Positions 543 to 20,946 are shown, counted from the stretch's first letter. The stretch is 64,000 nt of DNA from Patescibacteria group bacterium (GCA_041662745.1 JBAZRV010000005.1:6605-70604); one strand, 5' to 3'. The notes: generated by a model from the letters alone, not told the origin. Numbers and translations are program-made.

Positions 543-827
543 TTAATCTTTTAGATATTTGCCAGCGACACTCAAAGCAAACGAAGGCAAGATAATAAAA
601 ACCGTGGCGAACATAAGCCTGATAAACACTTCGCTAAGCCATGAGTCGGCCTTATCCGGCCCGGAACCGGTCAAAACGACTAACATACCCACGATGCCGA
701 AGACGATTGAGGAGTAAATAAATACCTGAGTAGCGATTTTTTGCATATTTTTTATTTTTATTGTATCACGAATATGCGCAAATCGCCACCCGTGAAGGTG
801 GCGAACAAACTTGCAAAACAAGTCCAA
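543..827 (-). CDS. small hypothetical membrane protein; true start probably internal (around 746)
   Basis: ORF with hydrophobic segments (IYSSIVFGIVGMLVVL, FATVFIILPSFALSVAG). The N-terminal ~12 codons overlap a hairpin-plus-flank repeat copy at 790-838. Confidence 0.35.
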   Translation of the reverse strand: MDLFCKFVRHLHGWRFAHIRDTIKIKNMQKIATQVFIYSSIVFGIVGMLVVLTGSGPDKADSWLSEVFIRLMFATVFIILPSFALSVAGKYLKD

Positions 828-846
828 AGCTCACATGATTATTAAT

Positions 847-1593
847 TTATTCTTTATCAGCAAATATCACCAGCCTTTTAGGGTAACTTTTGACAGATTT
901 ATTCCAAGCCCCCTCACAAGTAATCAAATTAAGATGCGCTTTGCCATCACTTGAAATAAACACCTCCGGCACATCGGCTTTAGGATCGTAACTTCGGCTT
1001 TGACGAACTATAAAAACCGTAATTCTCCCTTTCTCGTCCTCAATATATAATCTATCGCCGGCAACCAGCTTAGACAAACCGTTAAATACGGTCGGTTTGC
1101 CGTTTTTCCAAATGCCGTAATGGCCGGTTATAATAGCATTGCCGCTATCTCCGGGACGAGGACTGAATTCAAACCAAGCGGCGTTACTTGGTCCTTTCGG
1201 CACATCAACTGCTCCTTGAGGCGTCAACCCAACTCTTTCAATAACGGTATCAACTTTGATTTTGGGAATTTTCAGGCGCACCGGTACGCCTATGCCGGTT
1301 GAATCGGCAAGTAAAGCTGTCGGCAATCTTGGCGCCATGGATTCAATTAGCTTATTCAAATCACTAAACCTGTCATCCATTATGTTTTGCCCCATTTGAC
1401 TGTTAAGCTTAATGCCGGTAGCTGACGGAGTGAATTCCGCGTATGAATTCTTTATTGATAAACCCAAAAACATCATAACCGAAGATGAAATAATAGCCAA
1501 AATACTGACAACCAATAATAATTTTACATACATTTTTGAATGCATACCTTCGTAACAACTATAGCATAATGGCCTCACCTGAGGCGAGGCCAT
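847..1593 (-). CDS. sortase (cysteine transpeptidase); likely true start at 1545 or 1533
   Basis: N-terminal membrane anchor (MYVKLLLVVSILAIISSSVMMF), conserved His (ITGHYG) and the TLxTC catalytic motif (HLNLITCEG). Lies immediately downstream of an LPXTG substrate gene. Confidence 0.8.
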   Translation of the reverse strand: MASPQVRPLCYSCYEGMHSKMYVKLLLVVSILAIISSSVMMFLGLSIKNSYAEFTPSATGIKLNSQMGQNIMDDRFSDLNKLIESMAPRLPTALLADSTGIGVPVRLKIPKIKVDTVIERVGLTPQGAVDVPKGPSNAAWFEFSPRPGDSGNAIITGHYGIWKNGKPTVFNGLSKLVAGDRLYIEDEKGRITVFIVRQSRSYDPKADVPEVFISSDGKAHLNLITCEGAWNKSVKSYPKRLVIFADKE

Positions 1594-1624
1594 TGCTTAG
1601 TAAAAATAAATACTAAAATTGTAA

Positions 1625-3439
1625 CTAAAAGGCCCGTCTTTTTAAAGCCACCCATAGAGAAACCAACGACACAACAATAATCCCAGCAATCGCAACAATA
1701 CTCCATGCCATATCTCCGATTACAGATGATGCGCCGGTATTCGGCAATTTCGGAACGGCAGCGGCAGCTACAACAACAGTCGCAATAGCATAATCTTTCG
1801 CTGTTAAACCATTAGCTTCGCCGATAGCTGTAGCCGTATTAACAGTCGTTTGCGTAAGTTTTGAAACGCAAGTAAAAGTCCAAATCTCATTATTTTCCAA
1901 TAAATTATTGTTGTTCAAATCACCCGGATGTCCGATGACGCGGCCCGGCAACCCGGTACATTTATCATCAGCAACTGTGACATTGCTCAGCGGTTCCGTA
2001 CCGGGATTAGTGATGGTATAAGTATACGTGACTGTTCCGCCGCCGGCACGAAGCGTCAACGGACTGGGAACTTTCACGATATGGATCAATGGAGGAATAA
2101 TCGGCTGGCCGACAACGACTGAAGCGCTGGCGATATCCGTAGCGCTAATGCCATTGGCCCAACCGGTCGCCACTACGGTATTGGTATGAGTAACTGAAAG
2201 CGTGCGGGAACAGGTATAGACCCAGGTCTCCGCCAAATCAAGCTTGGCATCATTATTTAAGTCTCCTGATATCAAATTTATCGGACCGCAGGAATCGCCG
2301 ACCATTGTAATATTAGACACCGGAACAACGCCAATATTGCGAAGCGTGTAAGTATAAGTCACTGAACCGGGTCCGGCTGGCAAAGAGAGAGGATTGGCCG
2401 TTTTTACTATATCAATAAGGGGCGGCACGGGCGGAACAATTACCGGCGCGCCAATATCATTGTTAGTGACAATACAAAATTTATTATCACCACCAATAAG
2501 GTTAAATTGGCCGTTAGCGTCGCAATCGCCGGAAAACACCCGAGTATAATTAGGATCGGCAGTTTCAGTTACAGTAAACGCGGCCGCAGGCGCCGTAAAA
2601 CTGTTAGTTTCTCCGGATATGACTGATGTGCCATTAACAAATAAAGGGAAATCTGCTACGGTCTTGGTTCTACCGTTATCATTAACAACTGTCTTAACGA
2701 CATTGATTGTTCCCTGAGTCGGTAAACTTCCAGCTATCGGCGCTGCCACACAGGTCGGACCGGAAATAGTGCTATTAGCACCATTCATAGCAATAAAGGT
2801 TCCGGTAAGCGATATAAGTCGGCCATTAATTGTTGCTCCAGAAGCGGAAGTAATGTTGTTTTGGGCAATAAGCGTTCCGACAAAAGTACTATCGGAAGCT
2901 ATGGTTGCATCTCTAACAACCTGGAAAAATACATTACAGGCTTGAGCATTGCCAGCTAAAACGATTGAGCCGGAAAAGGTAAAATCCCTTCCGATTTGGA
3001 AAACCCAAACATCACTATAATCCCCATCTAAAGTAAGAGTACCGGAGAAAGTCTGATCAGAAGCTATAGTCCAAACGCCAGGCGCCGGACTGTTGCTGGC
3101 CCAAACTCCGCTGGTAGTCTGGCTGGCCAAATTATTAAAGGCGGCCAAAGCGGCAATCTGTGCAGAGGCAGATAACCCGCCAGTGCCGAAATAATCAGCA
3201 CCGCCGGTATGAGTCCAAGTTCCAGTTTTTGAAGCCGCCAATCCCGGACTAAGACCTAAATCGCCTGAAATCGTGGTGATGTTAGCTGAGCTCATGGCTG
3301 CAGCGCCCAAGACCGAAAAGCTGGCTGCATCACCCAGCGACGGAGCAGTGGCTGTCGCCGCGGACACAGAAATTGGCCCGACCAAACCAAATGAAATGAT
3401 AGCAGTTAAAATAACTGCTGAGATATTAAATTTTTTCAT
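1625..3439 (-). CDS. LPXTG-anchored surface protein: N-terminal ice-binding-like (DUF3494) domain plus two tandem DUF11 repeat domains
   Basis: Signal peptide (MKKFNISAVILTAIISFGLVGPISVSA). DUF3494-type opening (LGDAASFSVLGAAAMSSANITTISGDLGLSPG). Two ~110-aa repeats with the DUF11 signature (GSVTYTYTLRNIG...SNITMVGD and GTVTYTYTITNPG...SNVTVADDKC). C-terminal KLPNTG, a hydrophobic helix and a KRR tail form a sortase sorting signal. Confidence 0.8.
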   Translation of the reverse strand: MKKFNISAVILTAIISFGLVGPISVSAATATAPSLGDAASFSVLGAAAMSSANITTISGDLGLSPGLAASKTGTWTHTGGADYFGTGGLSASAQIAALAAFNNLASQTTSGVWASNSPAPGVWTIASDQTFSGTLTLDGDYSDVWVFQIGRDFTFSGSIVLAGNAQACNVFFQVVRDATIASDSTFVGTLIAQNNITSASGATINGRLISLTGTFIAMNGANSTISGPTCVAAPIAGSLPTQGTINVVKTVVNDNGRTKTVADFPLFVNGTSVISGETNSFTAPAAAFTVTETADPNYTRVFSGDCDANGQFNLIGGDNKFCIVTNNDIGAPVIVPPVPPLIDIVKTANPLSLPAGPGSVTYTYTLRNIGVVPVSNITMVGDSCGPINLISGDLNNDAKLDLAETWVYTCSRTLSVTHTNTVVATGWANGISATDIASASVVVGQPIIPPLIHIVKVPSPLTLRAGGGTVTYTYTITNPGTEPLSNVTVADDKCTGLPGRVIGHPGDLNNNNLLENNEIWTFTCVSKLTQTTVNTATAIGEANGLTAKDYAIATVVVAAAAVPKLPNTGASSVIGDMAWSIVAIAGIIVVSLVSLWVALKRRAF

Positions 3440-3795
3440 TGTTGATTACTTAATTATTAAAAGAACTTAGCTCGCGTATATTTTAAACCTCCTTCATAAT
3501 AATTATTATACCACTTTTTTTACTTTATTCATAACTCAATACCCCCCTGTGGATAAGTGAAAATAATTATACTACGAAACGTTTCTAAATATTGCTATCA
3601 ATAGATCAGTTACCGTAAATTTACATAAAAAATACTTCCCTCACCCTCTTTTGATTCAAACCAAACTTTCCCGCCCAACTTATCAACTAACGATTTCAAA
3701 AGATAAAGGCCTAAACCCGTTCCAAGCGGCTCTTTCTCAATGACTGGAGGGTTTGGGGGGTAATTTTTGCCCTACGCCTCGCCACATCATACTGT

Positions 3796-4284
3796 TTATT
3801 TTAAATAACTGTCAAAATAAATCGCATGACAGGTATAACCGCCGGGATTTTTCTGTAAATAATCCTGATGATAGTCTTCGGCGAGATAAAACTTGGTAAG
3901 CGGTTCTAATGCGGTAACAACCTGATTTTTCCAACGCTGGGATTTGTTTACAATATCTATGAAATTTTCAGCCTCCCTCCTCTCGTCATCATTGCCATAA
4001 AAAATCGCCGAGCGATAAGAAGTGCCGACATCATTGCCTTGTTGATTGAGGGTAGTTGGATCGTGAATTTGGAAAAAAAAGTCCAATAATTTTTTATAAG
4101 AAGTTTTATTTTCATCGTATTCAATCTCCACTGCCTCAGCATGACCGTCATGATTTTCATAGGTCGGATTAGCAATCTTGCCGCCGGCATATCCGACTTG
4201 GGTATTTATCACTCCGGGCTGTTTTCTAATCAGTTCCTCCAAACCCCAAAAACACCCTCCGGCTAAGACTATTTTTTTAGCCAT
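3796..4284 (-). CDS. msrA: peptide methionine (S)-sulfoxide reductase MsrA
   Basis: GCFWG active-site motif at the N-terminus ([17 protein letters not shown]); full-length similarity to MsrA. Confidence 0.9.
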
Positions 4285-4288
4285 ATAA

Positions 4289-4645
4289 TTAATCTTTTGG
4301 AATGAATTTCATGGAAATGGAATTAACGCAATATCTTTTGTCTTTCTCTGTTAATTTTTCACCTATAAACAAATGGCCCAAATGCGCTCCGCACTTGGCG
4401 CAAGTTATTTCCGTACGCCGTCCATCAGCATCAAGGCTCTTATAAACGGCGCCCGGTATTTCATCGTCAAAACTCGGCCAACCGCAATCGGATTCAAATT
4501 TATCTTTAGAATCATACAGCGGCGCTCCGCATTGCCGGCAAACGTACACGCCGGTTTCTTTATTATTCACATATTCGCCCGAAAACGGCGCTTCCGTACC
4601 CTTATCGATTATCACTCTTTTTTCTTCAGGCGTTAGTTCGTTCAT
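4289..4645 (-). CDS. msrB: peptide methionine (R)-sulfoxide reductase MsrB
   Basis: SelR/MsrB fold with two CxxC zinc pairs ([20 protein letters not shown]) and catalytic region (CGWPSF). Only 4 bp downstream of msrA. Confidence 0.9.
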
Positions 4646-4650
4646 ATTAT

Positions 4651-5613
4651 TTATTGCGAGAATTTAGAACCGTTAAGATCTCCGTTATTATTATAACCGC
4701 GGCTTTCCCAAAATCCCTTGTAATCAGTGTCGCTTGATAATTCAATTTTAGTGATCCATTTTATCCATTTATAGCCCCATTTTTGTTCGGCCGCCAATTG
4801 GAAAGGAAATCCCCTTTCCGGCGGCAAAACAACGCCATTAAGCTTATCGGCCATGATGATATTATTCTGCATGACATATTCCAGGGGAAAGGAAGTGGAA
4901 TAGCCGTCAGCCGCATAAAAAATTATGGTTTTGGCTTCCGGTTTGATTGCCGTATCTTTCAATAAATCCCTTACTAATACTCCTTCCCATAAAGCCTTAA
5001 CGCTCCAGCCCTCCACGCAATTCAACTGAATAACTTTTTGATATATTGGAAGTTTCAATATGTCGTCATATTTATATGACATCGGCGTTTCAATCAAGCC
5101 GGAGATTTCCAGCCGATAGCTATCCTTATCAACTTGCTGGGGACCTTTGATGGAATTCTCGCGAAAATCATTAATTGATCCCAATTTCTCGCCCCGATAC
5201 TCCGTTATCTCTACGCCGGAAAGCGTGATCGGTTTGCTTTTTCCGAAGTAATTGCCATTAAAATATGCAACAACGCCGGCTAAAATAATAATACCGACGG
5301 CAACCGCAGTTATGATGTAAATAATATTAGCATTTCCTTTGGTCGATTTAAATTTGCCGACGATAGCTTCTTTTAATTCCCGCCTTTTCAAAATCAAATG
5401 GATAAGGATCAATAAAAATAAAATGATTCCGCTCCAGTCGTGGATCATTGAAATTTTCGAGGCCGGCAAAAAATCATACGCCAAAAGAAAATATCTTTGC
5501 CATTCGGGGAATTTAATTATTCCCGTTCCCGCCAAGAGAATAAAATCCAGAAACATAGCAATGATAATAAAGCGTTTAAATGCAGTCATATTATTGGCTT
5601 TATTATACCACAA
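4651..5613 (-). CDS. membrane-anchored molybdopterin-binding oxidoreductase (sulfite-oxidase family, MsrP/YedY-like catalytic domain fused to an N-terminal 3-TM domain)
   Basis: Oxidored_molyb signatures ([22 protein letters not shown] and [24 protein letters not shown]). N-terminal ~110 aa carry three TM helices with conserved His ([18 protein letters not shown]), possibly a heme-binding MsrQ-like module. Confidence 0.65.
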
Positions 5614-5663
5614 CCAAGCATAAAAATCTAAAATATAATAAGGTTTTCAATTTTTAAAATAGA

Positions 5664-5729
5664 ACGACCGGCATTCATGGCGAATACCGGTCGTTTGGAA
5701 AACAAATTCAAAGCTCAGCGGACTGGATT
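5664..5729. repeat. distal copy of a 66-bp direct repeat (attR-like) carrying the displaced 3' end of tRNA-Asn
   Basis: 62/66 identity with 20881-20946. Contains the hairpin acgaccggcattcatgGcgaataccggtcgt, the flank ggaaaacaaattcaaag, and the 16-nt tRNA 3' end ctcagcggactggatt, then diverges. Confidence 0.7.
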
Positions 5730-6098
5730 TCCGTCTCATCTTTTCTTCCGAAAAGATTGCGGTGTCGCGGTCAGAGCTGAATGCTCCCAGGGTCGCATCC
5801 AGCTACGCTCAACTGCGTTTTATTTTGACAGAATTCAAAATAAAACTTGTTTCGTTCCTGCCCTGTTCGAATCCAACTAAACTGAAAATAGTTTAAAATA
5901 AAACAGGGCATAAAGCCCCGTTTTATTTTAAACAAGTCCAAAGCTCCACGCTACGGTCTGGAACCATTTTTACCAAGGGTTCTTGGGGTCTTTATGAGCG
6001 TTTTCTACCGGGAATCGGTCGGGGTAAAATGCGACAAATGCGACAGTACTTTATGCTGGTTTTATTGGACAAAATGAAGATTTGATAGTCCAATATTA

Positions 6099-6647
6099 CT
6101 ATACATTAAAATTATACCCAACGGGAGGATTATCTAATAATTCTTTGTACTCATTATTATGTCTATCTATTTCCCCTCTATCTACGGAATAGATATTTCC
6201 AAGCGTGTCTAAAATATATATATAATCACAATTAACAAGGTTAACATCAATTAATTTCTGGGTATAAATAAAACCCTCCTCATTTAATCGTACGGGAGCA
6301 TCGGATAATGGCGTATTAATTTTTATTTGACCAAAACGTCCATATATTAGTCTGCTTGCAAATATTCCATCCTTGCCAGTTTTTATTATGTTTATAAAAG
6401 AAACAACTTTATTTTTTGAAATTATATCAAAACCCAATCGTAATTTTAAATTCGCTTTTTGTCTTGAATAATCATACAACTTCCAATAAGCATTTATAAA
6501 TAAGCCACCAATTGAAAAAACAAATGCGGCGATAGAAAGTATTAATGCCATTGGAATATCCAAATATATATTAATCAAAAAAATCAGAAGCAATACTATT
6601 GTTATACTTAACAATATTAACAATATTGGCAATCGAAATTTATCCAT
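6099..6647 (-). CDS. hypothetical membrane protein (2 N-terminal TM helices); third gene of the AlbA_2 operon
   Basis: ORF in a very AT-rich block. N-terminal TM helices (LPILLILLSITIVLLLIFLINIYL, ALILSIAAFVFSIGGLFINAY). Its start lies 3 bp after the upstream gene's stop. Confidence 0.5.
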   Translation of the reverse strand: MDKFRLPILLILLSITIVLLLIFLINIYLDIPMALILSIAAFVFSIGGLFINAYWKLYDYSRQKANLKLRLGFDIISKNKVVSFINIIKTGKDGIFASRLIYGRFGQIKINTPLSDAPVRLNEEGFIYTQKLIDVNLVNCDYIYILDTLGNIYSVDRGEIDRHNNEYKELLDNPPVGYNFNV

Positions 6648-6650
6648 ATT

Positions 6651-7373
6651 TTATAATCTTCTTTCCAAAAATTTTTTCTGATCTTCGACAAAAATCTTTT
6701 TATCTACATTATCCCAATCAAATTTCTTAAAAATTTCAATGGTTGTATCAAGAGCAATCTCATTTGTCAAATTACAAATTTGATCCCGCGAATATACTTT
6801 TTTAATCAGAATTTTATCCTCCTTAAATTTACATATATATGCTCGGTTTGTTTCTCTTAAAAATATATCCCAAAAAAATAACATTCTGTTATTGACTCCC
6901 ACTAATTCAATAATAATTTCCAGTGAGTCAATATTTTCTATATTAGTTAATAATCTTTTAGAGAATTCCAAAATTTCTGTTATAGAATAAAGTGCTCCAA
7001 TAATACTTAAAAATTTATCAACTTTTACCCCGTATTCGTCTTGATATTCCTTCACTTTTTGCGGGGATAATCTCAGATCTTCCCTCATGGAAAAATAATG
7101 TACAAATTGTCCGGTATTATAAAATCTCCAATATTCATAAACTGGCCCCTCAGGCCAATCACAAAATGAGTCAACGCTGTTATTACTACTAGATATAATA
7201 CCGGTTTGACGATCTACGTGCGGGTAATCCCATCCCCGCAACGATACTCTACTTTTTTCAATAATTTTTTTACAATCAGATAGAGATTCAATTAATTTAT
7301 CATCATATTTATTTGGTCTAATAATAACCCTCCAATATCCCTTTAATTTAATTTTGTCTAATAATTCACTCAT
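6651..7373 (-). CDS. hypothetical protein; middle gene of the AlbA_2 operon
   Basis: 240-aa ORF with no recognisable motif. Its start overlaps the stop of the AlbA_2 gene by 4 bp (ATGA). Confidence 0.5.
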   Translation of the reverse strand: MSELLDKIKLKGYWRVIIRPNKYDDKLIESLSDCKKIIEKSRVSLRGWDYPHVDRQTGIISSSNNSVDSFCDWPEGPVYEYWRFYNTGQFVHYFSMREDLRLSPQKVKEYQDEYGVKVDKFLSIIGALYSITEILEFSKRLLTNIENIDSLEIIIELVGVNNRMLFFWDIFLRETNRAYICKFKEDKILIKKVYSRDQICNLTNEIALDTTIEIFKKFDWDNVDKKIFVEDQKKFLERRL

Positions 7374-8014
7374 AAATTATCTTTTATTAAATCAGTATTA
7401 AATTTATCTGAATCTGTTTCAGTGTCCACATTTAATAAGTTAACACAAGGGAGTTTTTTTAATATATCTTCTTTTTTCTTTTGAACCATCCGATCTAATA
7501 ATTCGCGCCACTCATGAATACTGGATATTTCCCTAGACTCAATCGGGGCTTTCGATCTGATATATATCGCATTCTTTCTTAACGCAATATTTTCATAATG
7601 ATTGCCCCCTTGCTTTTTAAACAGAGCAAAATCTGTACATACAGTGGGTTCAATTGATTCATGAATCTGTAAAATGATAAAGTTTTTAGATTCATCATCA
7701 ATTATTAAATTATCAGAAAAAATAGTAAACTCAATAATTGGGTCACAAAATCTTTTTATGAACCTCGCGATATCATCATAATTAAAAGATTGAAAATCGC
7801 TATCAGTCATACCCGATAAACTAACGCTTCGGTCTTTTTCTTCTTTGACACCCAAAACAATCACGCCACCCTGATCATTATTAGCCATAGCCAACATAGC
7901 TTTTAAAACGTTTATTTTCGTTTCGTAAGCATTCCAATTCAGTGATCCTTTATATTCAATGCTTTGTTCCTCATGACGACGTATTATGTAATTCGAAAAT
8001 TCTTCATTAAACAT
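7370..8014 (-). CDS. AlbA_2 (Schlafen-like) putative DNA-binding domain protein
   Basis: N-terminal region fits the AlbA_2 pattern (EQSIEYKGSLNWNAYETKINVLKAMLAMANNDQGGVIVLGVKEE). The C-terminal half is uncharacterised. Confidence 0.55.
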   Translation of the reverse strand: MFNEEFSNYIIRRHEEQSIEYKGSLNWNAYETKINVLKAMLAMANNDQGGVIVLGVKEEKDRSVSLSGMTDSDFQSFNYDDIARFIKRFCDPIIEFTIFSDNLIIDDESKNFIILQIHESIEPTVCTDFALFKKQGGNHYENIALRKNAIYIRSKAPIESREISSIHEWRELLDRMVQKKKEDILKKLPCVNLLNVDTETDSDKFNTDLIKDNL

Positions 8015-8549
8015 CTGATTAATAAATTATTATTTTAATTAAACTTACATTATCACTCTACACCCAAATTGTTATCGAATCAAGATGATTGAACAGTATT
8101 TTCCTATTGCTAACCTCGCAAAAAATATTCAAAAAACCCAGCAAAAAAGCCCTTTTGACAGCCATATAACAAAAGAGTATATTGAAAATAGGCCAGTCAT
8201 AATTCAACCAATAACAAAACCCCCCGAAAAAATTTACTTGACAAATTGGTTTTTTAGGAGTATAGTGACGAAAGGATGAGGTGAAAACCACCGCCGAAAA
8301 ATGCTATTTCAACAATTCATTAAAATGCCACCCTTAATCGGGCAACGCAAGCTCCCTTCATAGAGCCTCTAGAGTTTTAATGCGCATAGCGGTAATATTT
8401 CTAAACCGCAAACCGGAGTAATCCTCTGGTTGGTCTCAATAACATATAGTGAGAGGCCCAGAAGCAGAATTTAACCATGAAAATGGTAAAGTTTTGCGTC
8501 TGGGCCTCTCTTTTATTTTTCAAATTTTTAACAAATTAACAATAAATCT

Positions 8550-8918
8550 ATGTCAAAGACAAAATTTATCAGCACGATCGACTCCGATAATATCGAAGTC
8601 ATCGATCGCGTTCAAAAAGTGGCTGAATTCATCGAATTCGTCAATTGGTCAGCCACTCCGAGCCGATTTCGGCAGCCTAAAAACCAGAAGGATTTAGCTG
8701 CCGAAATCGGAGTGAGTATCGATTCGCTTACTGACTGGAAAAAACATCCGAGCTTCTGGCCGCTAATGCAAATTGCCTTGCGGAAATGGTGCCAAGATCA
8801 AATCCCCGACATTGTCGGCGGATTATACAGCAATGCCTGCGGCAAAGGCAAAGCGGGCGATGTCAAGATGTTCCTGCAATTAGCGGGGCTGATTGAGAAT
8901 AATAAAACTAATAAATAA
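8550..8918 (+). CDS. small HTH protein, phage terminase-small-subunit-like
   Basis: HTH segment QKDLAAEIGVSIDSLTDWKKHPSFW resembles TerS N-termini. Its stop is 8 bp before the ParB-MTase start. Preceded by a large stem-loop. Confidence 0.4.
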   Translation: MSKTKFISTIDSDNIEVIDRVQKVAEFIEFVNWSATPSRFRQPKNQKDLAAEIGVSIDSLTDWKKHPSFWPLMQIALRKWCQDQIPDIVGGLYSNACGKGKAGDVKMFLQLAGLIENNKTNK

Positions 8919-8926
8919 CGAAAAAT

Positions 8927-10276: not shown

Positions 10277-10292
10277 CACCTTTGTTAAACGT

Positions 10293-10877: not shown

Positions 10878-10880
10878 TGA

Positions 10881-11963: not shown

Positions 11964-11967
11964 AGGA

Positions 11968-12682: not shown

Positions 12683-14008
12683 ATGGGACTAATAAGTGAC
12701 AAGGAAATGGCGGTTTTAGGGCATACCAGGACGTTTGAGGCGGTCTTACCGGTAAAGTACTGTCTTTATGCGAGAAAGTCGACCGAGGACGACGAGAGGC
12801 AGGCTTTGAGCATCGAATCTCAGGTTAAAGAGATGCTGGAGCAAGCCCAAAAAGACAAACTGAATATTGCGGAAATAAAGAGAGAATCCCACTCAGCCAA
12901 AGACTCAGGTGAAAGGCCAGTATTCAATAAACTGATGAGGGAGATTAAGGAGGGAAAATTCGACGGCATCCTGACCTGGGCTCCAGATAGATTGAGCCGT
13001 AACGCTGGCGACTTGGGCAGTATCGTCGATTTGATGGACAGAGGCATGATCAAGGAGATAAGAACGCACGGCCAAACATTCATCAACTCCCCTAATGAGA
13101 AATTCCTGCTGATGATTCTGTGTTCCCAAGCCAAATTAGAAAATGATAATAAGGGCGAGAATGTTAAAAGAGGATTGAGAGCCAAAGTGGAAATGGGCTG
13201 GAGGCCGGGCATGCCACCGCTCGGTTATCTTCACGACAAGAATGGCGACAAAGGCAAAAGAAGAGCTTTTACTGATCCCAAAAGAGCGCCGATCATGAAG
13301 CAATTGTTTGATAAAGTTGCCTATGAGGGCTGGAGCGGTCGAGCCATATTCAAATGGCTCGATGAAATGGATTTCAGAACTAGATCGGGCAAGAAGATGA
13401 CCTTAAGCTCAATCTACCTCGTACTCAAAAATACTTACTACTATGGCTACTTTGAATATCCAGTGGGCAGCGGCAATTGGTATAAAGGCGGACACGAGCC
13501 GATTATAACAAAAGAAACTTTCGATGAAGCTCAAATACAACTCACGGTAGCGCCAAAATCCAAACCAGGCACCAAAGAATTCAGCTTCACTAAAATGATA
13601 AAATGCGGAGCTTGCGGATCAGGTGTAACGGCAGAAGAGAAATACAAAAAACTGAGCGATGGCTCAGTCAAAAAATATATCTATTACCACTGCAGCAGAT
13701 TCAATGATCTTAAATGCAAAGAATCCTACATCAGGGAAGAAAACTTAACTATTCAGCTAGTCAAATTAATAGATAAAATCGACATTAATCTTTTGAAAAC
13801 CCAAAAGAGAATTAAGGATGAGATAGACCGCTATCAAAAATTCACTAAAAATATCCTAGGTGTAGATAACAAAATAAAGATGCCGGAGATAAATATGAAA
13901 GACTATGCCAGATATGTTTTGACGGATGGCACTAGAGAAGAAAAAAGAGAACTGCTTAATTGCCTGGATTCTGAATTAAAATTGATGGGGCAGAAGATTT
14001 ATATTTAA
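12683..14008 (+). CDS. large serine recombinase (resolvase/invertase catalytic domain, recombinase domain and zinc ribbon)
   Basis: N-terminal catalytic domain with the nucleophile-Ser context (YCLYARKSTEDDERQALSIESQ) and resolvase motifs (GILTWAPDRLSRN). Central recombinase domain, then C-terminal Cys cluster (CGACGSG...YYHCSRF). Confidence 0.85.
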   Translation: MGLISDKEMAVLGHTRTFEAVLPVKYCLYARKSTEDDERQALSIESQVKEMLEQAQKDKLNIAEIKRESHSAKDSGERPVFNKLMREIKEGKFDGILTWAPDRLSRNAGDLGSIVDLMDRGMIKEIRTHGQTFINSPNEKFLLMILCSQAKLENDNKGENVKRGLRAKVEMGWRPGMPPLGYLHDKNGDKGKRRAFTDPKRAPIMKQLFDKVAYEGWSGRAIFKWLDEMDFRTRSGKKMTLSSIYLVLKNTYYYGYFEYPVGSGNWYKGGHEPIITKETFDEAQIQLTVAPKSKPGTKEFSFTKMIKCGACGSGVTAEEKYKKLSDGSVKKYIYYHCSRFNDLKCKESYIREENLTIQLVKLIDKIDINLLKTQKRIKDEIDRYQKFTKNILGVDNKIKMPEINMKDYARYVLTDGTREEKRELLNCLDSELKLMGQKIYI

Positions 14009-14095
14009 CGCATAATTGCAATATCTCATTCCAATTAATAATACATCTGGTTAATATATTGCCACAGGTAGCGCTGAAAATCTTAAAAAGCTAAA

Positions 14096-15565
14096 TTATG
14101 ACGCTTTTAAAAAAATATATGTATTCCTCAATGCAGGAAAAATTCTTAACAGCTTATTAGAATTTTTGTCAAAATCAGGCAAATTTTTAATTGCAATCAA
14201 AAAATACCTAGCAATTTTCTCTTCGTTAGAGAATAATTGATAAAAATCATTTTTTATGGACATCTTTGAACCATAAGAGCCAAACTTAGCAATAAAAATT
14301 AAATAATATCCAATAAACATAAAATTAGATGTGCCATAAACCTTTTCCTTTTCTAATGACAAAACTAATTCCATGTCAATTTCATTTGCTTTTAATAATG
14401 CTCTTAAAATAAAAATTTTCTGGTATAAGTAAGGCGACGATTTCAGAACGCTTATTAATAATCGTTGAATATCAACCCTATCTATGTAATCCTCTAGATA
14501 ATAACAAATTTCTTTTGAGTAGCATGGATCGAAAAGATTATTTTTTAAAATGCTTTCCAACGGGTGGCTTAAATGTAATCTTTTGAATTTATAGATGCAA
14601 AACTTAAAAACGGTCTTATTAATTTTGTCAACTGCTCTATTTATTACAGCATCGTCCCACATTTCTTTCAGTTGATCATCAACGAAATCGCAATTATCAT
14701 CATCAAAATCGGACATTAAATAATTAACAAAATCCATAGTGTCAGAATAATTATTTTTATTGGTTGTATGTTTCGAATAATTAATTATCTCAGTTTTACC
14801 GCCATTGAGATGCAGATTTAATGGCCTCAGTAATTCCGTCAATTTGCTTAATGCCCTTCTAACGCCGATTTCATCATCCGAAAATACCCTTATATCATCC
14901 ACAAATCTATAATAATTAAATCCAGACTCGATCATGGACTGATCAACCTCGTATAAATATACATTTGCCAAAAATGAAGCACAATCATTGCCCTGGCATA
15001 ATCCAATCTCATCTTCACACCAAGTATTTAAAAGATGGCTTAACTTATCTGAGATTTCTTTTTCTGTTCCTAAATATTTTAATATCTCGATGATTTTTTT
15101 GATTTTGATATGTTCAAAAAATGCGTTGATATCGGTTTTTAAAAGAAACCCATTCGGATTATTAATAAAATTATCATTTGATTTCTTTATAAAACTTTTC
15201 CAACTTTCAATATTTTCATTCCTATTCAAAAAATAATTTTTCTTTTTTGATATCCTATAACCGAAACTGATTTGGCTTGAAACTAGCAACTTATCAATAT
15301 CTTTGCTAAATCTGTTTAGTATTAATTGAAAATACAACCTATCTAGGATAGAAATGAAATATCCTGGCCTCAATATTAAATTCGGCTTCGGTATGTCTAA
15401 TATCAATAAGCTATGAGGAGTATAATTATCAAAATCAATTTCATAAAAAATTGATGGATTATTAATATAATCACGATAATTAATGACATCAGGCCAAAAA
15501 TCATCGTTTTCATCCTTACTGATATTGCTTACGGCTACATTAATTTCTTCCCTAGTGAAATTCAT
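14096..15565 (-). CDS. reverse transcriptase (standalone, defence/Abi-like) with alpha-helical C-terminal domain
   Basis: RT motifs: TDINAFFEHI (motif 2-like), GLCQGNDCASFLANVYLYEVD (motif 4/QG), YYRFVDDIRVF (YxDD catalytic motif), LHLNGGKTEI (motif 6-like). The ~200-aa C-terminal region has no identifiable domain. The gene is very AT-rich. Confidence 0.8.
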   Translation of the reverse strand: MNFTREEINVAVSNISKDENDDFWPDVINYRDYINNPSIFYEIDFDNYTPHSLLILDIPKPNLILRPGYFISILDRLYFQLILNRFSKDIDKLLVSSQISFGYRISKKKNYFLNRNENIESWKSFIKKSNDNFINNPNGFLLKTDINAFFEHIKIKKIIEILKYLGTEKEISDKLSHLLNTWCEDEIGLCQGNDCASFLANVYLYEVDQSMIESGFNYYRFVDDIRVFSDDEIGVRRALSKLTELLRPLNLHLNGGKTEIINYSKHTTNKNNYSDTMDFVNYLMSDFDDDNCDFVDDQLKEMWDDAVINRAVDKINKTVFKFCIYKFKRLHLSHPLESILKNNLFDPCYSKEICYYLEDYIDRVDIQRLLISVLKSSPYLYQKIFILRALLKANEIDMELVLSLEKEKVYGTSNFMFIGYYLIFIAKFGSYGSKMSIKNDFYQLFSNEEKIARYFLIAIKNLPDFDKNSNKLLRIFPALRNTYIFLKAS

Positions 15566-15630
15566 ATAAACATATTCATTAAAACTGACTAATCCTTATG
15601 ATTATTCATCTTAAATTTTCGAACATACAA

Positions 15631-16047
15631 TTACAATTTCGATACTAGCTTATTTTCGATTTTAGACATAGACTTATTAAAATTTCTTTGAGTTAATTGG
15701 TGTTCCCAAATCCTCAGAACCTTCCATCCCATTCTTTTTAATTTTCTTCTATTCTTAACATCCCGATGAATATTAGCTTCAATTTTAGCGCGCCAATACT
15801 TCTTTGGCAAGCGTTTTTTCGTATTGCTAAAATTGTAACCGTGCCAAAAATCGCCATCAATAAACACGGCGATTTTTTTGCGTGGCAGGGCGATATCCGG
15901 CTTGCCCGGCGCCCTTTTATAATGCTTTTGGAAATATACGCCTCTTTTCCTTAATTCACCGAAAACTAAAAGCTCCACTTTGGTGTTCTTGCCCCTGATC
16001 TTAGACATTATCTCGCTTCTTTTCTCTTTTGAAAACACGTCTGCCAT
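15631..16047 (-). CDS. vsr: very-short-patch-repair endonuclease Vsr
   Basis: Close match to E. coli Vsr along its length (MADV...KRSEIMSKIRGKNTKVE...PGKPDIAL...IAVFIDGDFWHG...GWKVLRIWEHQL). Confidence 0.85.
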   Translation of the reverse strand: MADVFSKEKRSEIMSKIRGKNTKVELLVFGELRKRGVYFQKHYKRAPGKPDIALPRKKIAVFIDGDFWHGYNFSNTKKRLPKKYWRAKIEANIHRDVKNRRKLKRMGWKVLRIWEHQLTQRNFNKSMSKIENKLVSKL

Positions 16048-16085
16048 AATTCACTGTTGGGATTATTTTCTATTCATTTTCTAAT

Positions 16086-16125
16086 ATGATATAATATTGT
16101 CATACATGTGGATAACTCCACAGGA
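16086..16125 (+). promoter_or_regulatory. putative promoter plus palindromic operator upstream of the LexA-Dcm gene
   Basis: Extended -10 (tgatataat) at 16086-16094, followed by a perfect 16-bp palindrome TGTGGATAACTCCACA (16107-16122) ~23 bp upstream of the ATG. Read directly from the sequence. Confidence 0.4.
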
Positions 16126-16145
16126 ATAAAAAATAACTAGAAAAT

Positions 16146-17696
16146 ATGCCCACACTTACTAAGAAACAAAAAAACGTTCTTGATTTTATTGAGGGCTATC
16201 GCGATAGGAAGCACTATTCCCCCTCCCATGAAGAGATCAAGAATCACTTCAAGCTATCTTCCGTTTCAACTGCGCATCATTATATCTCCAAGTTGCAGAA
16301 GGCCGGATATCTGAAAAAAGAAGATAACCAGCCGAGATCAATAAACCTCTGCTTCGAACCGGTAATCCAGATTGATCTATTGGGCAATATTACTGCCGGC
16401 CAGCCAATCGAAGCGATTGAATTAGGCAAGGAAACAATCGCTATTCCTAGCTATGGACTTAATAGGAATAGTAGCTATTACGCTCTCAAAGTCAAGGGCG
16501 ACAGCATGATCGATGAAGGGATATTCGACGGCAGCATCGTAGTCATCAAGAAGCAATCAACTGCTGAAAACGGCCAGACCGTAGTCGCCGTGATAGATGA
16601 TAACGAGGCAACACTGAAAATGATATACCGCGAAAAGAATAAATTCCGCTTGCAGCCAGCCAACCAAAGCATGCTTCCCTTTTACCGCAAAGAAGTGGAA
16701 ATCCGCGGGGTAGTGATAAAAATCATCAGGGATTTATATAAAGAAGAGCAGAAATTCAGAACTCTTGATCTATTCGCAGGCGTAGGTGGCATCAGGCTGG
16801 GATTTGAAAAAGCCGGTTTCGAGACCGTATTCGCTAATGACTTTGAAAAAGCCTGCGCAGATACTTATAACAAGAACTTCAAGACTTCAAAATTAGTAGT
16901 AGAGGATATTAGGAGAATCGGAATCGATGATCTGCCTGAATTCGACTTCCTGCTCGGCGGCTTTCCTTGCCAGGCATTCTCAATAGCTGGCTACCGCAAA
17001 GGATTCGAAGATGACAAAGGGCGGGGCAACCTATTCTTTGATGTCGCAAGGATAATAGAAACCAGAAGGCCGACAGGATTCCTAATGGAAAACGTCAAGA
17101 ACCTTAAAAGCCATGATAACGGACGGACATTCAAAATCATCAAAGAAACCCTGGAAAACCTCGGCTATCATATCAAAGCCAGGGTTTTGAATAGCGTGGA
17201 GTACGGCAATATCCCCCAGAACCGTGAAAGGATTTACATCGCCGGATTCAGGGACAAAAGGCATTGCGATAATTTCGAATTCCCAAAGCCGGTGAAACTG
17301 ACAAACAAGGTTGCAGATCTTCTCGAAAAAAAAGTTGATGAAAAATATTATTACAATGGAAAGCCTCTTTACCAAAAGCTTAAGGATTTCGTGAAAGAAA
17401 AAAATAAAGTCTACCAATGGCGCCGCCAATACGTCCGTGAAAATAAAAAAGGCGTCTGTCCGACGCTGACTGCGAATATGGGGATGGGCGGCCATAATGT
17501 TCCGATTATCAAGGATGACAAAGGCATTAGGAAGCTTACGCCGTTAGAATGTTTTAGGCTCCAGGGATTTCCAAAGAGCTTCGAGCTTCCAGCTAATTTG
17601 GCTGATTCAGCTCTTTACAAGCAGGCCGGCAATTCAGTTACAGTTACAGTATTGGAAGCGGTAGGCAAGCAAATGATGCAGGCTGTCAGCGACTAA
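16146..17696 (+). CDS. fusion protein: full-length LexA-type repressor (wHTH plus S24 autopeptidase) fused to a C5-cytosine DNA methyltransferase (Dcm-type)
   Basis: aa 1-~195 align with LexA: wHTH (LTKKQKNVLDFIEGY...SKLQKAGYL), Ala-Gly cleavage site (ITAGQP), Ser nucleophile (KVKGDSMIDEG) and Lys (EATLKMI). aa ~200-516 carry C5-MTase motifs I (LDLFAGVGGIRLGF), IV (GGFPCQAFSIAG), VI (ENVKNL), VIII (QNRERIYIAGF) and X (RKLTPLECFRLQGFP). Confidence 0.85.
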   Translation: MPTLTKKQKNVLDFIEGYRDRKHYSPSHEEIKNHFKLSSVSTAHHYISKLQKAGYLKKEDNQPRSINLCFEPVIQIDLLGNITAGQPIEAIELGKETIAIPSYGLNRNSSYYALKVKGDSMIDEGIFDGSIVVIKKQSTAENGQTVVAVIDDNEATLKMIYREKNKFRLQPANQSMLPFYRKEVEIRGVVIKIIRDLYKEEQKFRTLDLFAGVGGIRLGFEKAGFETVFANDFEKACADTYNKNFKTSKLVVEDIRRIGIDDLPEFDFLLGGFPCQAFSIAGYRKGFEDDKGRGNLFFDVARIIETRRPTGFLMENVKNLKSHDNGRTFKIIKETLENLGYHIKARVLNSVEYGNIPQNRERIYIAGFRDKRHCDNFEFPKPVKLTNKVADLLEKKVDEKYYYNGKPLYQKLKDFVKEKNKVYQWRRQYVRENKKGVCPTLTANMGMGGHNVPIIKDDKGIRKLTPLECFRLQGFPKSFELPANLADSALYKQAGNSVTVTVLEAVGKQMMQAVSD

Positions 17697-18877
17697 TCAT
17701 CCTCGGATTCCCCAGACCTATCTTCCTTTACCTCCCCCGCAAATTCTTCATAAGATCCGACTTTAGTGAAGTCAATGTCATATTTTCCTTCTCCAATTTT
17801 GTATATTACGACTGAGTCCAAGCCGATCTCCTCTAATTTGCCATAAGTCAAAAGATCTCTTTCTTTCAGATCCAGTATGTCTCGAAGAAGCCACTGGCCC
17901 AGTGCCGAATTAGGATTGCTCATCAACGCCTTTGATCCGTCCTGGCATACCTTGGCTGACATTTCAGCGCCATTCGGCAGGAGCAGGGTGAATGAAGTGT
18001 CGCGCGGAGGGAAAAATCCCGGATATTCAGAATGTATCAATGCCGGGATCGGAATATACACTTCATCAGGATTTCTCGGCCTGCCTAAGGCATTCCATTG
18101 ATTGAGTCCGCTCCTGGCCGGCACTTCTTTAATTCCTTTTTTTGATGAATAAAGCGGAAGAAAAACATGAGTAAGAGCCTTAATGGGCGCAAAAACAACT
18201 TCCCGTTCAACTTTCCTGAAAACATTTTCAAGCGCATCAAAGGGATTCTCCAGTATTTTTACCGGAAAATCCAATAATGCATCGGATAAATTAAACCTTT
18301 TGTATAATGTGCTCTTGGTCACATTGAAGGAGTACTCATTGCTGCCGTCGCTGAATGAAATCGCATTCGCATTCTTTCCTGATTTGATATTCCTTATTTT
18401 TGATAAATTTACCAGATCCATTCCTGATTCATAAACCAAAATACCGCCCTTTTTCCGAGTAACGCAGTGATACATCATTTTTTCCAAACCGAATATTCTT
18501 TTTGTCGCGTTAATCCGCTCATTCCTCAGCCCGGCTATCTTAATGACTTTTCCCTTATCATCCAAATTTCGGAATAAATTATGCTCGCTATTGAATTCAG
18601 CGATCTTCTGCATAGTCGCTCCATTGCCTTCAAGGAAAGTTTTGATTCCGATTCCAACTTTATTCTTAGCCGCATCAGCTGAACAGTCGGTTCTGGATAA
18701 ATTGTCGGCATTAAAAGACTTGCAAAATAAATTTTCTGCAATCCTGTATTGGATATACGGCTCCTGGCTTTCTGAAAACAAACGGGACAACGATCCGATC
18801 GTACGGAGCATCTCCTGATAATATGATATGCTTTTCTTGTCCTGCTTATTCAGAAACATATAATGATATTTTCTCAC
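17693..18877 (-). CDS. putative type II restriction endonuclease, cognate to the adjacent C5-MTase (function inferred from context)
   Basis: 394-aa ORF convergent with the MTase gene, 3' ends overlapping by 4 bp. No known motif recognised; the call rests on the dcm-vsr neighbourhood. Confidence 0.35.
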   Translation of the reverse strand: MRKYHYMFLNKQDKKSISYYQEMLRTIGSLSRLFSESQEPYIQYRIAENLFCKSFNADNLSRTDCSADAAKNKVGIGIKTFLEGNGATMQKIAEFNSEHNLFRNLDDKGKVIKIAGLRNERINATKRIFGLEKMMYHCVTRKKGGILVYESGMDLVNLSKIRNIKSGKNANAISFSDGSNEYSFNVTKSTLYKRFNLSDALLDFPVKILENPFDALENVFRKVEREVVFAPIKALTHVFLPLYSSKKGIKEVPARSGLNQWNALGRPRNPDEVYIPIPALIHSEYPGFFPPRDTSFTLLLPNGAEMSAKVCQDGSKALMSNPNSALGQWLLRDILDLKERDLLTYGKLEEIGLDSVVIYKIGEGKYDIDFTKVGSYEEFAGEVKEDRSGESEDD

Positions 18878-18920
18878 TTTACCGCTATTGTGTCAATTCG
18901 AATATAAACTGCCGAAAGCC

Positions 18921-18985
18921 AGTCTAGAACCAAAACGACCGGTTCGCCAGTGGCGGATCGGTCGCGCAGGAAAACAAGTTCTTGG
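18921..18985. repeat. third copy of the hairpin-plus-flank repeat (lacks the tRNA segment)
   Basis: gtctagaaccaaaacgaccgg is identical to 20869-20889. Followed by a different hairpin (ttcgccagtggcggat...cggtcg) and ggaaaacaagttc. Confidence 0.55.
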
Positions 18986-19018
18986 TTTTTATATTTGGAT
19001 ATAATAATGAAATTTAAT

Positions 19019-20050
19019 TTAGGTGGTAATCTCACCAACAATACTAGTATTAATCGCTCGTGATAAAGCTTTCGCTGATTTTAGTCCTTGTGCCAAAACC
19101 CACATAAATTTAACTTGAGCCATAACATCAGTTAAATCGCCAGCTGGAATAGCCCCCGCATCCAATGCTAATTTTCCTGGTTCATAAATATCCATATGGG
19201 TTTGACCGCCGACAAATTTAGTCGAAACAATAACTGGAATTTTAAGAACATTGACGGATTCACTGATAACTGGAAGAAGTGAGTACTCATTTTCACTCGG
19301 AACATTACCTGCACCCAATGATTTTAGTAACAAACCTTCGACCCCCCCCAATCGCAAAATTTTCGTAAGAATTTTTGGCTCTAGCCCTGGCACTAAATCA
19401 ATTGCAAGAATTCCTCGCTGGAATTCTGCATTAACTTTTAATGGTGTTTTTCTTTCCACCCTGAATGCTTCTGGAATAAAATGAACACCTACGGCGTCTA
19501 TCCTGGCTAAATGTGGAAAGGCTGGCGAATCAAATGCAGGGAATCTTGCTTCGCTGGTTTTTATAGCTCTGACGGCTCGCAGGACGCTATCGCTAAAACA
19601 AATCATTACTTCCGCAATTTTCTCATCGCAAGCTTGAAGAGCTGTCTTCATTGAATTTTCTAAATTGAAGCGTGCGTCTGTACCATAGGCAACTAAGGGA
19701 AGTTGTGAGCCCGTAAAGACAATAGGAATTTTTAACCCTCTACCAAGCGCAAGAGCAACACCGCCAGCTGTATATGTCATAGTGTCAGTACCATGCGTAA
19801 TAATAATAGCGTCCGCTTGATTATGGATTTCTTTGATTTTAAGGGCTAATTTTTTCCAATGGGTCGGGTTAATATTTGTGCTATCCAGACGTTCAAGCTC
19901 TAAGAAAGAAACATCTGCCATTTCTTGTAATGATGGAACTATAGCAAGAATCTCCTTTATGCTTTTAGCGGGCTTCAAAACTCCCGATGGGTCTGGAACC
20001 ATTGCAATAGTTCCGCCAAATCCTAGTATTACAATTTTTCGTTTCTTCAT
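19019..20050 (-). CDS. ansA: L-asparaginase, type I family
   Basis: Asparaginase signatures (ILGFGGTIAM and ITHGTDTMTYTAGGVALAL); full-length match of ~340 aa. Confidence 0.8.
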   Translation of the reverse strand: MKKRKIVILGFGGTIAMVPDPSGVLKPAKSIKEILAIVPSLQEMADVSFLELERLDSTNINPTHWKKLALKIKEIHNQADAIIITHGTDTMTYTAGGVALALGRGLKIPIVFTGSQLPLVAYGTDARFNLENSMKTALQACDEKIAEVMICFSDSVLRAVRAIKTSEARFPAFDSPAFPHLARIDAVGVHFIPEAFRVERKTPLKVNAEFQRGILAIDLVPGLEPKILTKILRLGGVEGLLLKSLGAGNVPSENEYSLLPVISESVNVLKIPVIVSTKFVGGQTHMDIYEPGKLALDAGAIPAGDLTDVMAQVKFMWVLAQGLKSAKALSRAINTSIVGEITT

Positions 20051-20053
20051 AAG

Positions 20054-20569
20054 TTATTTTTCGTTTATTTCTTTTGAGGCAATTATCTCACCGTCTTTTC
20101 TTTCATCAATAGTATAACCGACTTTGGCATGCCCTTGTTTTAATAATTCAGTTTCTGCTGGTTCTTCAGCGATTAATTTGCCAAAAACTAAGCTGCAATC
20201 ATTTGCCCGAGCGACAGAGTCAGCGATTCCAAGCAGCTGCTCGCCGATTTTTTTACCTCGCAAATCAGGCCTGACGTATCTATCCGCAATATACAAATAA
20301 TTAGCCGAACTGCCATCTTTTTTATTATAAATTTTAAACAGTTTTAGATTTATAAAATAACGTTGATCTTCGCCTGTAAGATTGATTCTGTAGGCGGTCG
20401 ATTTCGCTAAATCAACATCCAATAACTTTACGCCAACGGTTATAAGTTCGGAATAATTGTTTATCTTGCCTAATCTGGTTTCCAGAGCTTGAATTTGGCC
20501 ATCGACTCTGATTCGATATTCATCATCAACAATTAAGCTGTAATCCCTAGTTACGGCAGAATCATACAA
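20054..20569 (-). CDS. putative GNAT-family N-acetyltransferase
   Basis: Acetyl-CoA-binding motif-A-like segment (YVRPDLRGKKIGEQLLGIA). Its stop is 4 bp upstream of ansA. Confidence 0.4.
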   Translation of the reverse strand: MYDSAVTRDYSLIVDDEYRIRVDGQIQALETRLGKINNYSELITVGVKLLDVDLAKSTAYRINLTGEDQRYFINLKLFKIYNKKDGSSANYLYIADRYVRPDLRGKKIGEQLLGIADSVARANDCSLVFGKLIAEEPAETELLKQGHAKVGYTIDERKDGEIIASKEINEK

Positions 20570-20880
20570 GGTGCTGTCTTTAGCCGCCTGGATAAATTTA
20601 ATATATATTTGTTTAGTGGCTCCAATAGTTTATCGCGCCATGCCTTCAGCCGATGACAAAAGACGTTCTCTTTCAGCCAAAGACAACTCGGACAACCTTT
20701 CTGGATTGTGCAAATAATCGGCTAATTGGGGCTCGCCTTCATACTGTTCCCGATCCTCGTAACGTCCAAATTTTTCCATAAATATCATTCATTTATATGT
20801 GTATTATACACTATTTTAACTAAAAACAAAAGTCGAACGAACTAACTTCGAACTTTGCCCCCAATCGGTCTAGAACCAAA

Positions 20881-20946
20881 ACGACCGGCATTCATGACGA
20901 ATGTCGGTCGTTTGGAAAACAAGTTCAAAGCTCAGCGGACTGGATT
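20881..20946. repeat. proximal copy of the 66-bp direct repeat (attL-like), overlapping the 3' end of tRNA-Asn
   Basis: Matches 5664-5729 at 62/66 positions. Positions 20931-20946 are the tRNA 3' end. Confidence 0.7.

Follow-up and report, generated by a model that had tools for sequence, protein, structure and literature searches.

How did five copies of a hairpin-plus-motif unit come to lie along the left 21 kb of a 64,000-nucleotide stretch of Patescibacteria DNA (GCA_041662745.1 JBAZRV010000005.1:6605-70604, hereafter the window, with positions counted from its first letter)? An earlier note, made from the sequence alone, had read these units as the seams of islands inserted one after the other at a tRNA-Asn gene, and our analysis supports that central claim: we consider it probable that the locus is a tandem array of islands at tRNA-Asn, most likely driven by a large serine recombinase. 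Related loci used for comparison are designated by L numbers.

The array is organized around the following two features.

20930-21002, minus strand: intact tRNA-Asn(GUU) gene without an encoded CCA (ARAGORN; Rfam tRNA, 75.7 bits)
21004-21018, minus strand: leader-T (AAAACAAGTTCAAGG), the 5' strand of a leader-trailer helix (inverted repeat)

This tRNA gene is the sole one in the window, and on its strand the order is AAAACAAGTTCAAGG, T, the tRNA, C and TTTGAACTTGTTTT. When the motif AAAACAAGTYCAAAGCTC was searched for with up to 3 mismatches, the 64-kb window gave 6 matches, as compared with 0.13 expected, and none of 100 shuffles reached 6. Four matches are on the plus strand (815, 5699, 5929 and 20916) and two on the minus strand (21001-21018 and 21187-21204); the five copies first reported are all present, and the two minus-strand matches had been overlooked. 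All six are pieces of either the leader or the trailer of tRNA-Asn; in the remaining 43 kb of the window (21.3-64 kb) there is no match, and the first 80 related loci gave a single one, the tRNA-Asn leader of L002. The long direct repeat that had been given as a 66-bp pair is real and measures 67 nt at 94% identity (compare 5663-5729 with 20880-20946); it covers the end of tRNA-Asn, about its last 16-17 nt (nt 58-73). The five att-like repeats, named T0, D, B1, B2 and E below, are all on the tRNA strand, downstream of one tRNA-Asn, and their hairpin sequences vary while the trailer stays conserved. When the tRNA 3' end plus trailer was used as a metagenome query, 8 stretches were returned, all of them tRNA-Asn loci or the window's own B2. 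The hairpin-plus-motif units are copies of the tRNA-Asn 3' end, its trailer and an intrinsic terminator.

Since the motif lies downstream of the tRNA in gene order, it corresponds to the 3' trailer, which pairs with the 5' leader; indeed, trailer-T (20916-20929) forms an inverted repeat with leader-T (21004-21018). The motif is the trailer half of a leader-trailer helix that lengthens the acceptor stem by about 16 bp, a point missed by the earlier note. We built an alignment of spliced pre-tRNAs from the window, L001, L002, L003, L091 and L092 (n=6). Over the 23 pairs of the helix, 95.7% of the cells were paired and 10 pairs were altered on both sides; none of 500 shuffles matched this covariation, and slid controls did not exceed 54%. 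The tRNA-Asn genes of these five relatives likewise have no encoded CCA; in more distant Patescibacteria the CCA is encoded and no such helix was found. The helix was seen only in the clade whose tRNA-Asn is without an encoded CCA.

The junction units and the native gene beyond them are as follows, from the tRNA outward.

20858-20946, minus strand: T0, tRNA-proximal, attL-like unit, 98% identical in L087
18921-18985, minus strand: copy D, with a partial trailer (GAACTTGTTTTCC), a terminator hairpin and TTTTGGTTCTAGAC
5897-5966, minus strand: copy B1, with TGGTTCCAGACCG, 7 nt, GAGC, a trailer (TTTGGACTTGTTTA) and a distinct terminator hairpin
5730-5896, minus strand: X(B), a diverged relative of the insert of X(A), the pseudo-tRNA described below (fold z = -3.3)
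5663-5729, minus strand: copy B2, attR-like partner of T0, comprising nt 58-73 of the tRNA in displaced form, a trailer, CC and a terminator of the T0 type
784-833, minus strand: copy E, the outermost junction, with TGAGC, trailer-C, 11 nt and the hairpin CGCCACC-TTCAC-GGGTGGCG
543-746, minus strand: gene for a 67-aa membrane protein, natively the next one downstream of tRNA-Asn (76% nucleotide identity with L086, 80% amino acid identity with L003)

T0 consists of tRNA nt 58-73, trailer-T (20916-20929), CC and a terminator hairpin (20879-20913) followed by TTGGTTCTAGACCGATTGGGGG, and the block after this terminator reads TTTTGGTTCTAGACCGATTGGGGG. A T0-type unit also follows tRNA-Asn in L087, L091, L003 and L090. 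Copy D shares with the tRNA-adjacent copy 21 identical nucleotides, GTCTAGAACCAAAACGACCGG, as originally described, plus GGAAAACAAGTTC, and its hairpin loop resembles that of L003. In B1, a GGTTCCAGACCG block is fused to GAGC, the trailer and a third type of terminator, and the unit looks like a scrambled relic junction. The stretch cacgctacggtctggaacc (5947-5966) had been proposed as a degenerate tRNA 3' end; the match is poor (14/23 by eye), and we rejected this candidate in favour of a copy of the post-terminator GGTTCTAGACCG block, which also follows the terminator at 20866-20877 and 18921-18931. Identity between B2 and the tRNA begins at nt 58, in the T-loop. X(B) is about 76% identical to X(A) over about 50 nt (compare 5768-5817 with 21069-21119), and a compensatory change preserves one stem. 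The inverted T-arm 11-mer GTTCGAATCCA exists as the earlier note said, inside X(B) at 5865-5875 rather than at 5843-5853; the exact 11-mer has by our estimate a chance expectation of about 0.03, and a test allowing one mismatch was not significant. At the left end, the hairpin that had been placed from 790 onward occupies 784-803.

The three modules proposed earlier (Msr/sortase, defence and ansA/GNAT) are split from one another by the internal trailer/terminator copies.

18986-20857, minus strand: Block 3, with a GNAT acetyltransferase (20054-20569) and an asparaginase, ansA (19019-20050) (Pfam)
5967-18920, no single strand: Block 2, the defence island (Pfam, PADLOC, PHROGs)
834-5662, minus strand: Block 1, the Msr/sortase block (Pfam)

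Block 3 is bounded by T0 and D, and the order from the tRNA is T0, GNAT-ansA, D, defence island, B1-X(B), B2, Msr-sortase, E and native flank. The GC content of the left, island side is about 0.40 and patchy, as compared with about 0.46 on the right, by our averaging.

What did the locus look like before insertion? L086, a related metagenome contig, carries the uninterrupted (empty) site: tRNA-Asn, trailer, 11 nt, the hairpin CGCCACC-TGCAA-GGGTGGCG, 260 nt and the 67-aa membrane-protein gene. We compared E with L086 locally, the 260-nt spacer of L086 having misaligned the global alignment, and the arms of the E hairpin proved identical to those of the L086 tRNA-Asn terminator. As both the hairpin and the neighbouring gene match L086, E is the native trailer/terminator, and an insertion of about 20 kb separates it from the tRNA. 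In L003 only about 2 kb separate tRNA-Asn from the small membrane-protein gene, and Block 1 is absent between the two genes in L086 and L003.

The cargo of the site is variable. L087/L108, a variant that co-occurs in the same sample, has a tRNA and T0 98% identical to those of the window followed by different cargo (genes for an N6 methylase, for a type III-like helicase and for an SduA_C protein), after which come a 94%-identical recombinase, LOOT RNA and PDC-S11; the homologous core of Block 2 is present in L087/L108 and in L010. The modules are therefore not conserved in all relatives, L086 being empty, L003 holding about 2 kb and L087 having other cargo. Neither of the two tests named in the earlier note refutes its reading. 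No genome with one block but not the others was found among the related loci examined. When RpoD, the 67-aa protein and AnsA were looked up as exact proteins, all contigs retrieved were from the same strain and arranged in the same way; several of these assemblies end within the 67-bp repeat. In L091 a purD-like open reading frame (ORF) was recognized by reading. The independent assemblies L081/L089, L083/L084, L087/L108 and L085 end inside or beside tRNA-Asn repeats, which fits fragmentation induced by repeats or strain variation at a hotspot.

We then looked for an enzyme that could have made the junctions.

12683-14008, plus strand: large serine recombinase, convergent with the tRNA
12384-12501, minus strand: LOOT RNA (Rfam RF03000, 90.9 bits against a gathering threshold of 46.4, model positions 1-121)

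The recombinase has Resolvase (PF00239), Recombinase (PF07508) and Zn_ribbon_recom (PF13408) domains, an intact catalytic motif (YARKST) and a match to the phrog_95 integrase (1.6e-68); it has at least 8000 homologs, the named ones being from Patescibacteria. In the annotated ORFs (at least 60 aa) of 1-21 kb neither a second recombinase nor a phage-integrase domain was found, and no tyrosine-integrase Pfam family was seen among the called genes of the annotated related loci. Both the large serine identity of the enzyme and the absence of a tyrosine integrase had escaped the earlier note. Recombinase homologs lie 0.1-3 kb downstream of tRNA-Asn and convergent with it in L005, L008, L010, L017, L029, L033, L092 and L111, and homologs of about 60% identity adjoin tRNA-Gln (L113) and tRNA-Ser (L118); the recombinase-tRNA arrangement recurs in at least 10 loci. 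In L029 a 6.3-kb recombinase element lies between direct repeats (41 nt, 90%) of the tRNA-Asn terminator, and in L118 the T-loop is where a 24-nt repeat of the tRNA 3' end begins. A search for distal tRNA 3'-end repeats found this 24-nt repeat and a tandem tRNA copy in L111, and none in the fetched flanks of L010, L029, L005, L008, L017, L033 and L113. A viral contig scan with the recombinase gave relatives at no more than 29% identity, and there is thus no evidence for the island as a prophage.

In L017, inverted repeats of about 200 bp (13355-13560 and 15240-15440) flank a related recombinase; they hold the tRNA-Asn trailer, terminators and four CACCACCACCACGTTTT copies, giving the segment an invertible or transposon-like look. 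The LOOT RNA of the window is divergent from the recombinase gene and upstream of a 109-aa ORF. LOOT also occurs in related islands that have this recombinase, at L108 2652-2766, L111 863-980 and L113 5064-5184, always on the strand opposite to the recombinase and just upstream of a same-strand ORF that differs from case to case (109 aa in the window, DUF4352 in L108, 186 aa in L111 and 851 aa in L113). A literature search on LOOT RNA and on islands of the Candidate Phyla Radiation (CPR) gave nothing specific. The tRNA-Asn island cargo of L111 (GCA_028688055.1, 1082-2535) includes bAvd and reverse transcriptase genes that resemble a diversity-generating retroelement.

A pseudo-tRNA on the 5' side of the tRNA gene, at 21040-21204, had been missed by the earlier note.

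21040-21204, minus strand: pseudo-tRNA X(A) (direct repeat), with a leader homologous to those of tRNA-Asn in L002, L091 and L092
21227-21255, minus strand: sigma-70-like promoter of tRNA-Asn (TTGACA, 17 nt, TAATAT), read by eye

The promoter and leader region (21255-21190) is homologous to its counterparts in L002, L091 and L092, and the promoter of the locus is the native one. X(A) starts with the native leader-C (21190-21204) and tRNA nt 1-18 (21171-21188), continues with a 105-nt GC-rich insert in the D-loop (21066-21170), and after it has nt 21-33, an 8-nt insert and GTTAA (21040-21044), being truncated in the anticodon loop; 21 nt further on come leader-T and the intact tRNA-Asn. Its fold has a z of -3.3. 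With permissive E-values, neither X(A) nor X(B) matched an Rfam family when 20800-21300 and 5600-6100 were searched, and BLAST with both showed that the 105-nt insert has no further copies in the window plus L001-L080. Leader-C is complementary to trailer-C of E and, more generally, to the G-variant trailers at E and B1, and leader-T to the A-variant trailer at T0; these variants would fit a compensatory change following replacement of the trailer.

In L008 (11707-12020) and L111 (11955-12270), too, the real gene is preceded, on its promoter side, by truncated pseudo-tRNA-Asn copies with GC-rich hairpin inserts; there a small GIY-YIG ORF follows the pseudo-tRNA; X(A) is without such an ORF. 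In several close relatives group I introns split the tRNA-Asn anticodon between nt 35 and 36 (L001 11236-11783, L002 11835-12106, L092 2411-2636, L086 1-37 and L111 11393-11614). The L001 intron contains an ORF with HNH-like motifs, by reading, and the tRNA-Asn of the window is intron-free. RpoD (21278-22537) and DnaG adjoin the tRNA; the top matches of RpoD are Patescibacteria metagenome-assembled genomes at no more than 81% identity, among which the rpoD-tRNA-Asn linkage is widespread.

Taken together, these data suggest the following course of events. The native locus would have comprised rpoD, promoter, leader, tRNA-Asn, trailer, the CGCCACC terminator and the small membrane-protein gene. 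Foreign DNA would have entered repeatedly at the tRNA-Asn 3' end, each element bringing its own tRNA 3' end, trailer and terminator, so that the gene was rebuilt each time and the resident copy was displaced outward as a direct-repeat scar. The recombinase at 12683-14008 would insert its element at the 3' end of the tRNA, perhaps in the T-loop, at which the identity of B2 begins. T0 and B2 would be attL and attR of a 15-kb recombinase element, and B2 and E the ends of an older Msr/sortase element; the recombinase-less blocks could be older or captured elements, similar to cis-mobilizable elements (CIMEs), with D and B1 as relic sites. That the ansA/GNAT and Msr/sortase blocks were inserted separately, or are mobile on their own, is suggested by the repeat pattern. 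The position of the crossover, the order of events and the assignment of all junctions to one recombinase are likewise what we infer.

Several observations weigh against this course of events or qualify it. Only Block 2 has a recombinase, 834-5662 and 18986-20857 being without one, and the enzyme does not adjoin the proximal junctions, from which it is 4.9-6.9 kb away; of 7 recombinase homologs that were sampled, 3 show no tRNA gene within 10 kb. Copy D is without a tRNA part and E retains only TGAGC, so that there is no shared crossover point. By eye, no consistent half-site symmetry was found at the candidate cores, the T-loop (AA) and GGTTC-TA-GACC. The crossover comparison covered T0, D, B1, B2, L087, L091 and L003, and since these junctions have no common crossover point it gives no choice between a crossover in the T-loop and one in GGTTCTAGAC. 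Large serine recombinases usually leave a 2-bp shared core, and a 67-bp repeat needs an attP that mimics attB. X(B), inside the B2 junction, resembles X(A) upstream of the tRNA, which a simple attP model would not predict; the likeness would fit homologous recombination or capture of flanking DNA. L091 and L003 show no evident island and yet have a T0-type unit after tRNA-Asn, which may be native to the clade and not brought by an element. Neither an excised circle nor an attP junction nor a same-strain empty site was present among the 8 metagenome stretches and the same-strain contigs. D and B1 may also be relics within a single 15-kb element bounded by the 67-bp pair.

Could the array have arisen without a site-specific recombinase? 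Homologous recombination or segmental duplication, with a circular or linear donor fragment from a related strain carrying X, tRNA-Asn, trailer and terminator, and with distal tRNA copies that have decayed to B2, B1 and E, would account for the X(A) homology beside B2, the repeat then reaching, in degraded form, beyond 67 bp, and for the lack of a single crossover point shared by the junctions; moreover, L111 natively has tandem full, pseudo and intron-bearing tRNA-Asn copies, and L008 a 5' pseudo-copy. However, members of the recombinase family recur beside tRNA 3' ends and are convergent with the tRNA every time, B2 and L118 have identity blocks beginning at or in the T-loop as in recombinase-driven ssrA islands, and a 67-bp block 94% identical next to X at about 76% or less is unexpected from a single duplication. 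We therefore hold this origin to be unlikely. Another view is that the units are a generic repeat of the repetitive extragenic palindromic (REP) or miniature inverted-repeat transposable element (MITE) type, or a common terminator, gathered here by coincidence. Each copy does end with a terminator-like hairpin and a T-run, and GC-rich palindromic hairpins recur in CPR loci. Every copy of the motif is nevertheless a piece of the tRNA-Asn leader or trailer (6/6, with none in the other 43 kb); the single match in the first 80 related loci is again a tRNA-Asn leader, the hairpins differ between copies while the trailer is conserved, and the 8 metagenome stretches are tRNA-Asn loci or B2, which leaves this view next to no probability.

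The scars might also have been made by tyrosine integrases whose genes have since been lost, the serine recombinase then being cargo or serving in inversion or resolution. An identity block running from the T-loop past the tRNA 3' end is typical of tyrosine-integrase islands. Two of the three blocks are without a recombinase, and the L017 recombinase between its inverted repeats of about 200 bp looks like an invertase. Integration at tRNA and tmRNA genes is usually carried out by tyrosine integrases, as stated in PMC4383910. Against this stand the recombinase-tRNA arrangement in at least 10 loci and the negative searches given above, for phage-integrase domains in the ORFs of 1-21 kb and for tyrosine-integrase Pfam families in the annotated related loci, and we regard such lost integrases as quite improbable. 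As to X(A) and X(B), they may be functional RNAs with a role in site choice, target immunity to re-cutting or pre-tRNA processing, or they may be debris. It is conceivable, too, that the 3' end of tRNA-Asn with its trailer and terminator is a dedicated landing pad for a huge undescribed family of Patescibacteria defence islands, in which a large serine recombinase recurs, joined in many of them by a ParB-methylase and/or LOOT RNA. We give both of these ideas little credence.

Returning to serial insertion by a large serine recombinase, the closest precedent that we found is the ssrA islands of Dehalococcoides (McMurdie et al. 2011), which are tandem, have 3'-end direct repeats and an inferred T-loop insertion, and encode a large serine recombinase on the opposite strand from that of the target gene, with a ParB-domain gene in the module (PMC3146451). 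Their recombinase-less blocks were read as cis-mobilisable elements joined by accretion, and CcrB is the nearest homolog family of the integrase, the staphylococcal cassette chromosome (SCC) integrating at a single-copy essential gene (PMC3146451). Our locus is like these islands in its tandem arrangement, 3'-end repeats, T-loop start, opposite-strand serine recombinase, ParB gene and recombinase-less blocks. In contrast, the target here is tRNA-Asn instead of tmRNA and the host is a member of the Patescibacteria; the repeats, of up to 67 bp, are longer and take in trailer and terminator; a single recombinase is present, with no small DsiA-like one beside it; between this enzyme and the proximal junction lie 5-7 kb of defence cargo that varies, whereas in Dehalococcoides it abuts attL; and the cargo is anti-phage defence rather than dehalogenases.

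SCC and SCCmec integrate at the 3' end of their target gene and form tandem composite arrays with direct repeats. The target of CcrAB is however protein-coding and two recombinases are needed. In streptococcal arrays built from ICEs (integrative and conjugative elements), IMEs (integrative and mobilizable elements) and CIMEs at tRNA genes, tandem elements share att sites and some are without integration genes; they use mostly tyrosine integrases and are tied to conjugation, whereas we saw no conjugation or relaxase genes in the array of the window. As in the tRNA islands found by Islander and TIGER, one end has an intact tRNA and the opposite end a displaced 3' fragment, the gene being restored; an integrase gene lies inside and a relative (L086) has the empty site. 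Our locus differs from them by the absence of a tyrosine integrase, by its extra internal scars and by the 5' pseudo-tRNA.

The locus thus extends a known architecture to a little-studied lineage, the Patescibacteria (CPR), and leaves current concepts unchanged. Patescibacteria genomes are small, and a hotspot behind tRNA-Asn offers a concrete route of gene acquisition; a limited literature search turned up nothing on gene acquisition or exchange in this group. Islands of this kind would allow serine recombinases to bring in or swap anti-phage systems such as restriction-modification, defence reverse transcriptases, Shedu-like proteins and PDC-S11. The orphan Rfam RNA LOOT gains a defined genetic context, and recombinases with natural targets in tRNA flanks could serve as tools for site-specific integration.

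Besides the recombinase, LOOT RNA and the 109-aa ORF, Block 2 (GC 0.28-0.32 in patches) contains the following genes.

17693-18877: NgoFVII-like restriction enzyme
16146-17696: LexA-S24-Dcm methylase fusion
15631-16047: Vsr
14096-15565: DRT-type reverse transcriptase
10881-11963: PDC-S11
10293-10877: helix-turn-helix (HTH) protein
8927-10276: ParB-methylase
7370-8014: SLFN/AlbA_2 protein
6099-7373: two low-GC unknown genes

The genes of Block 1 are these.

4651-5613: molybdopterin oxidoreductase with a cytochrome b-like domain
4289-4645: MsrB
3796-4284: MsrA
1625-3439: 604-aa protein with ice-binding-like and DUF7507 domains
847-1593: sortase

The reverse transcriptase (489 aa) has its matches in UG21 and UG32, two defence classes (E about 1e-60), and sits in a patch of 29-31% GC between the recombinase and Vsr. 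In L115 (11434-12861) LexA and an S24 peptidase are fused to an N6/N4-type methylase (compare with the Dcm type at 16146-17696), and both fusions lie in islands of the same recombinase family; their composition hints at a damage-responsive control of restriction-modification. Upstream of a 122-aa ORF that precedes the ParB-methylase, an inverted repeat at 8451-8510 has 28-nt arms, 86% complementary, and a 4-nt loop. Outside the array, a GC-rich tandem repeat at 27953-28092 has a 21-nt period and about 6 CGGTCATCGCGTCGGGGCGGNCG-like copies.

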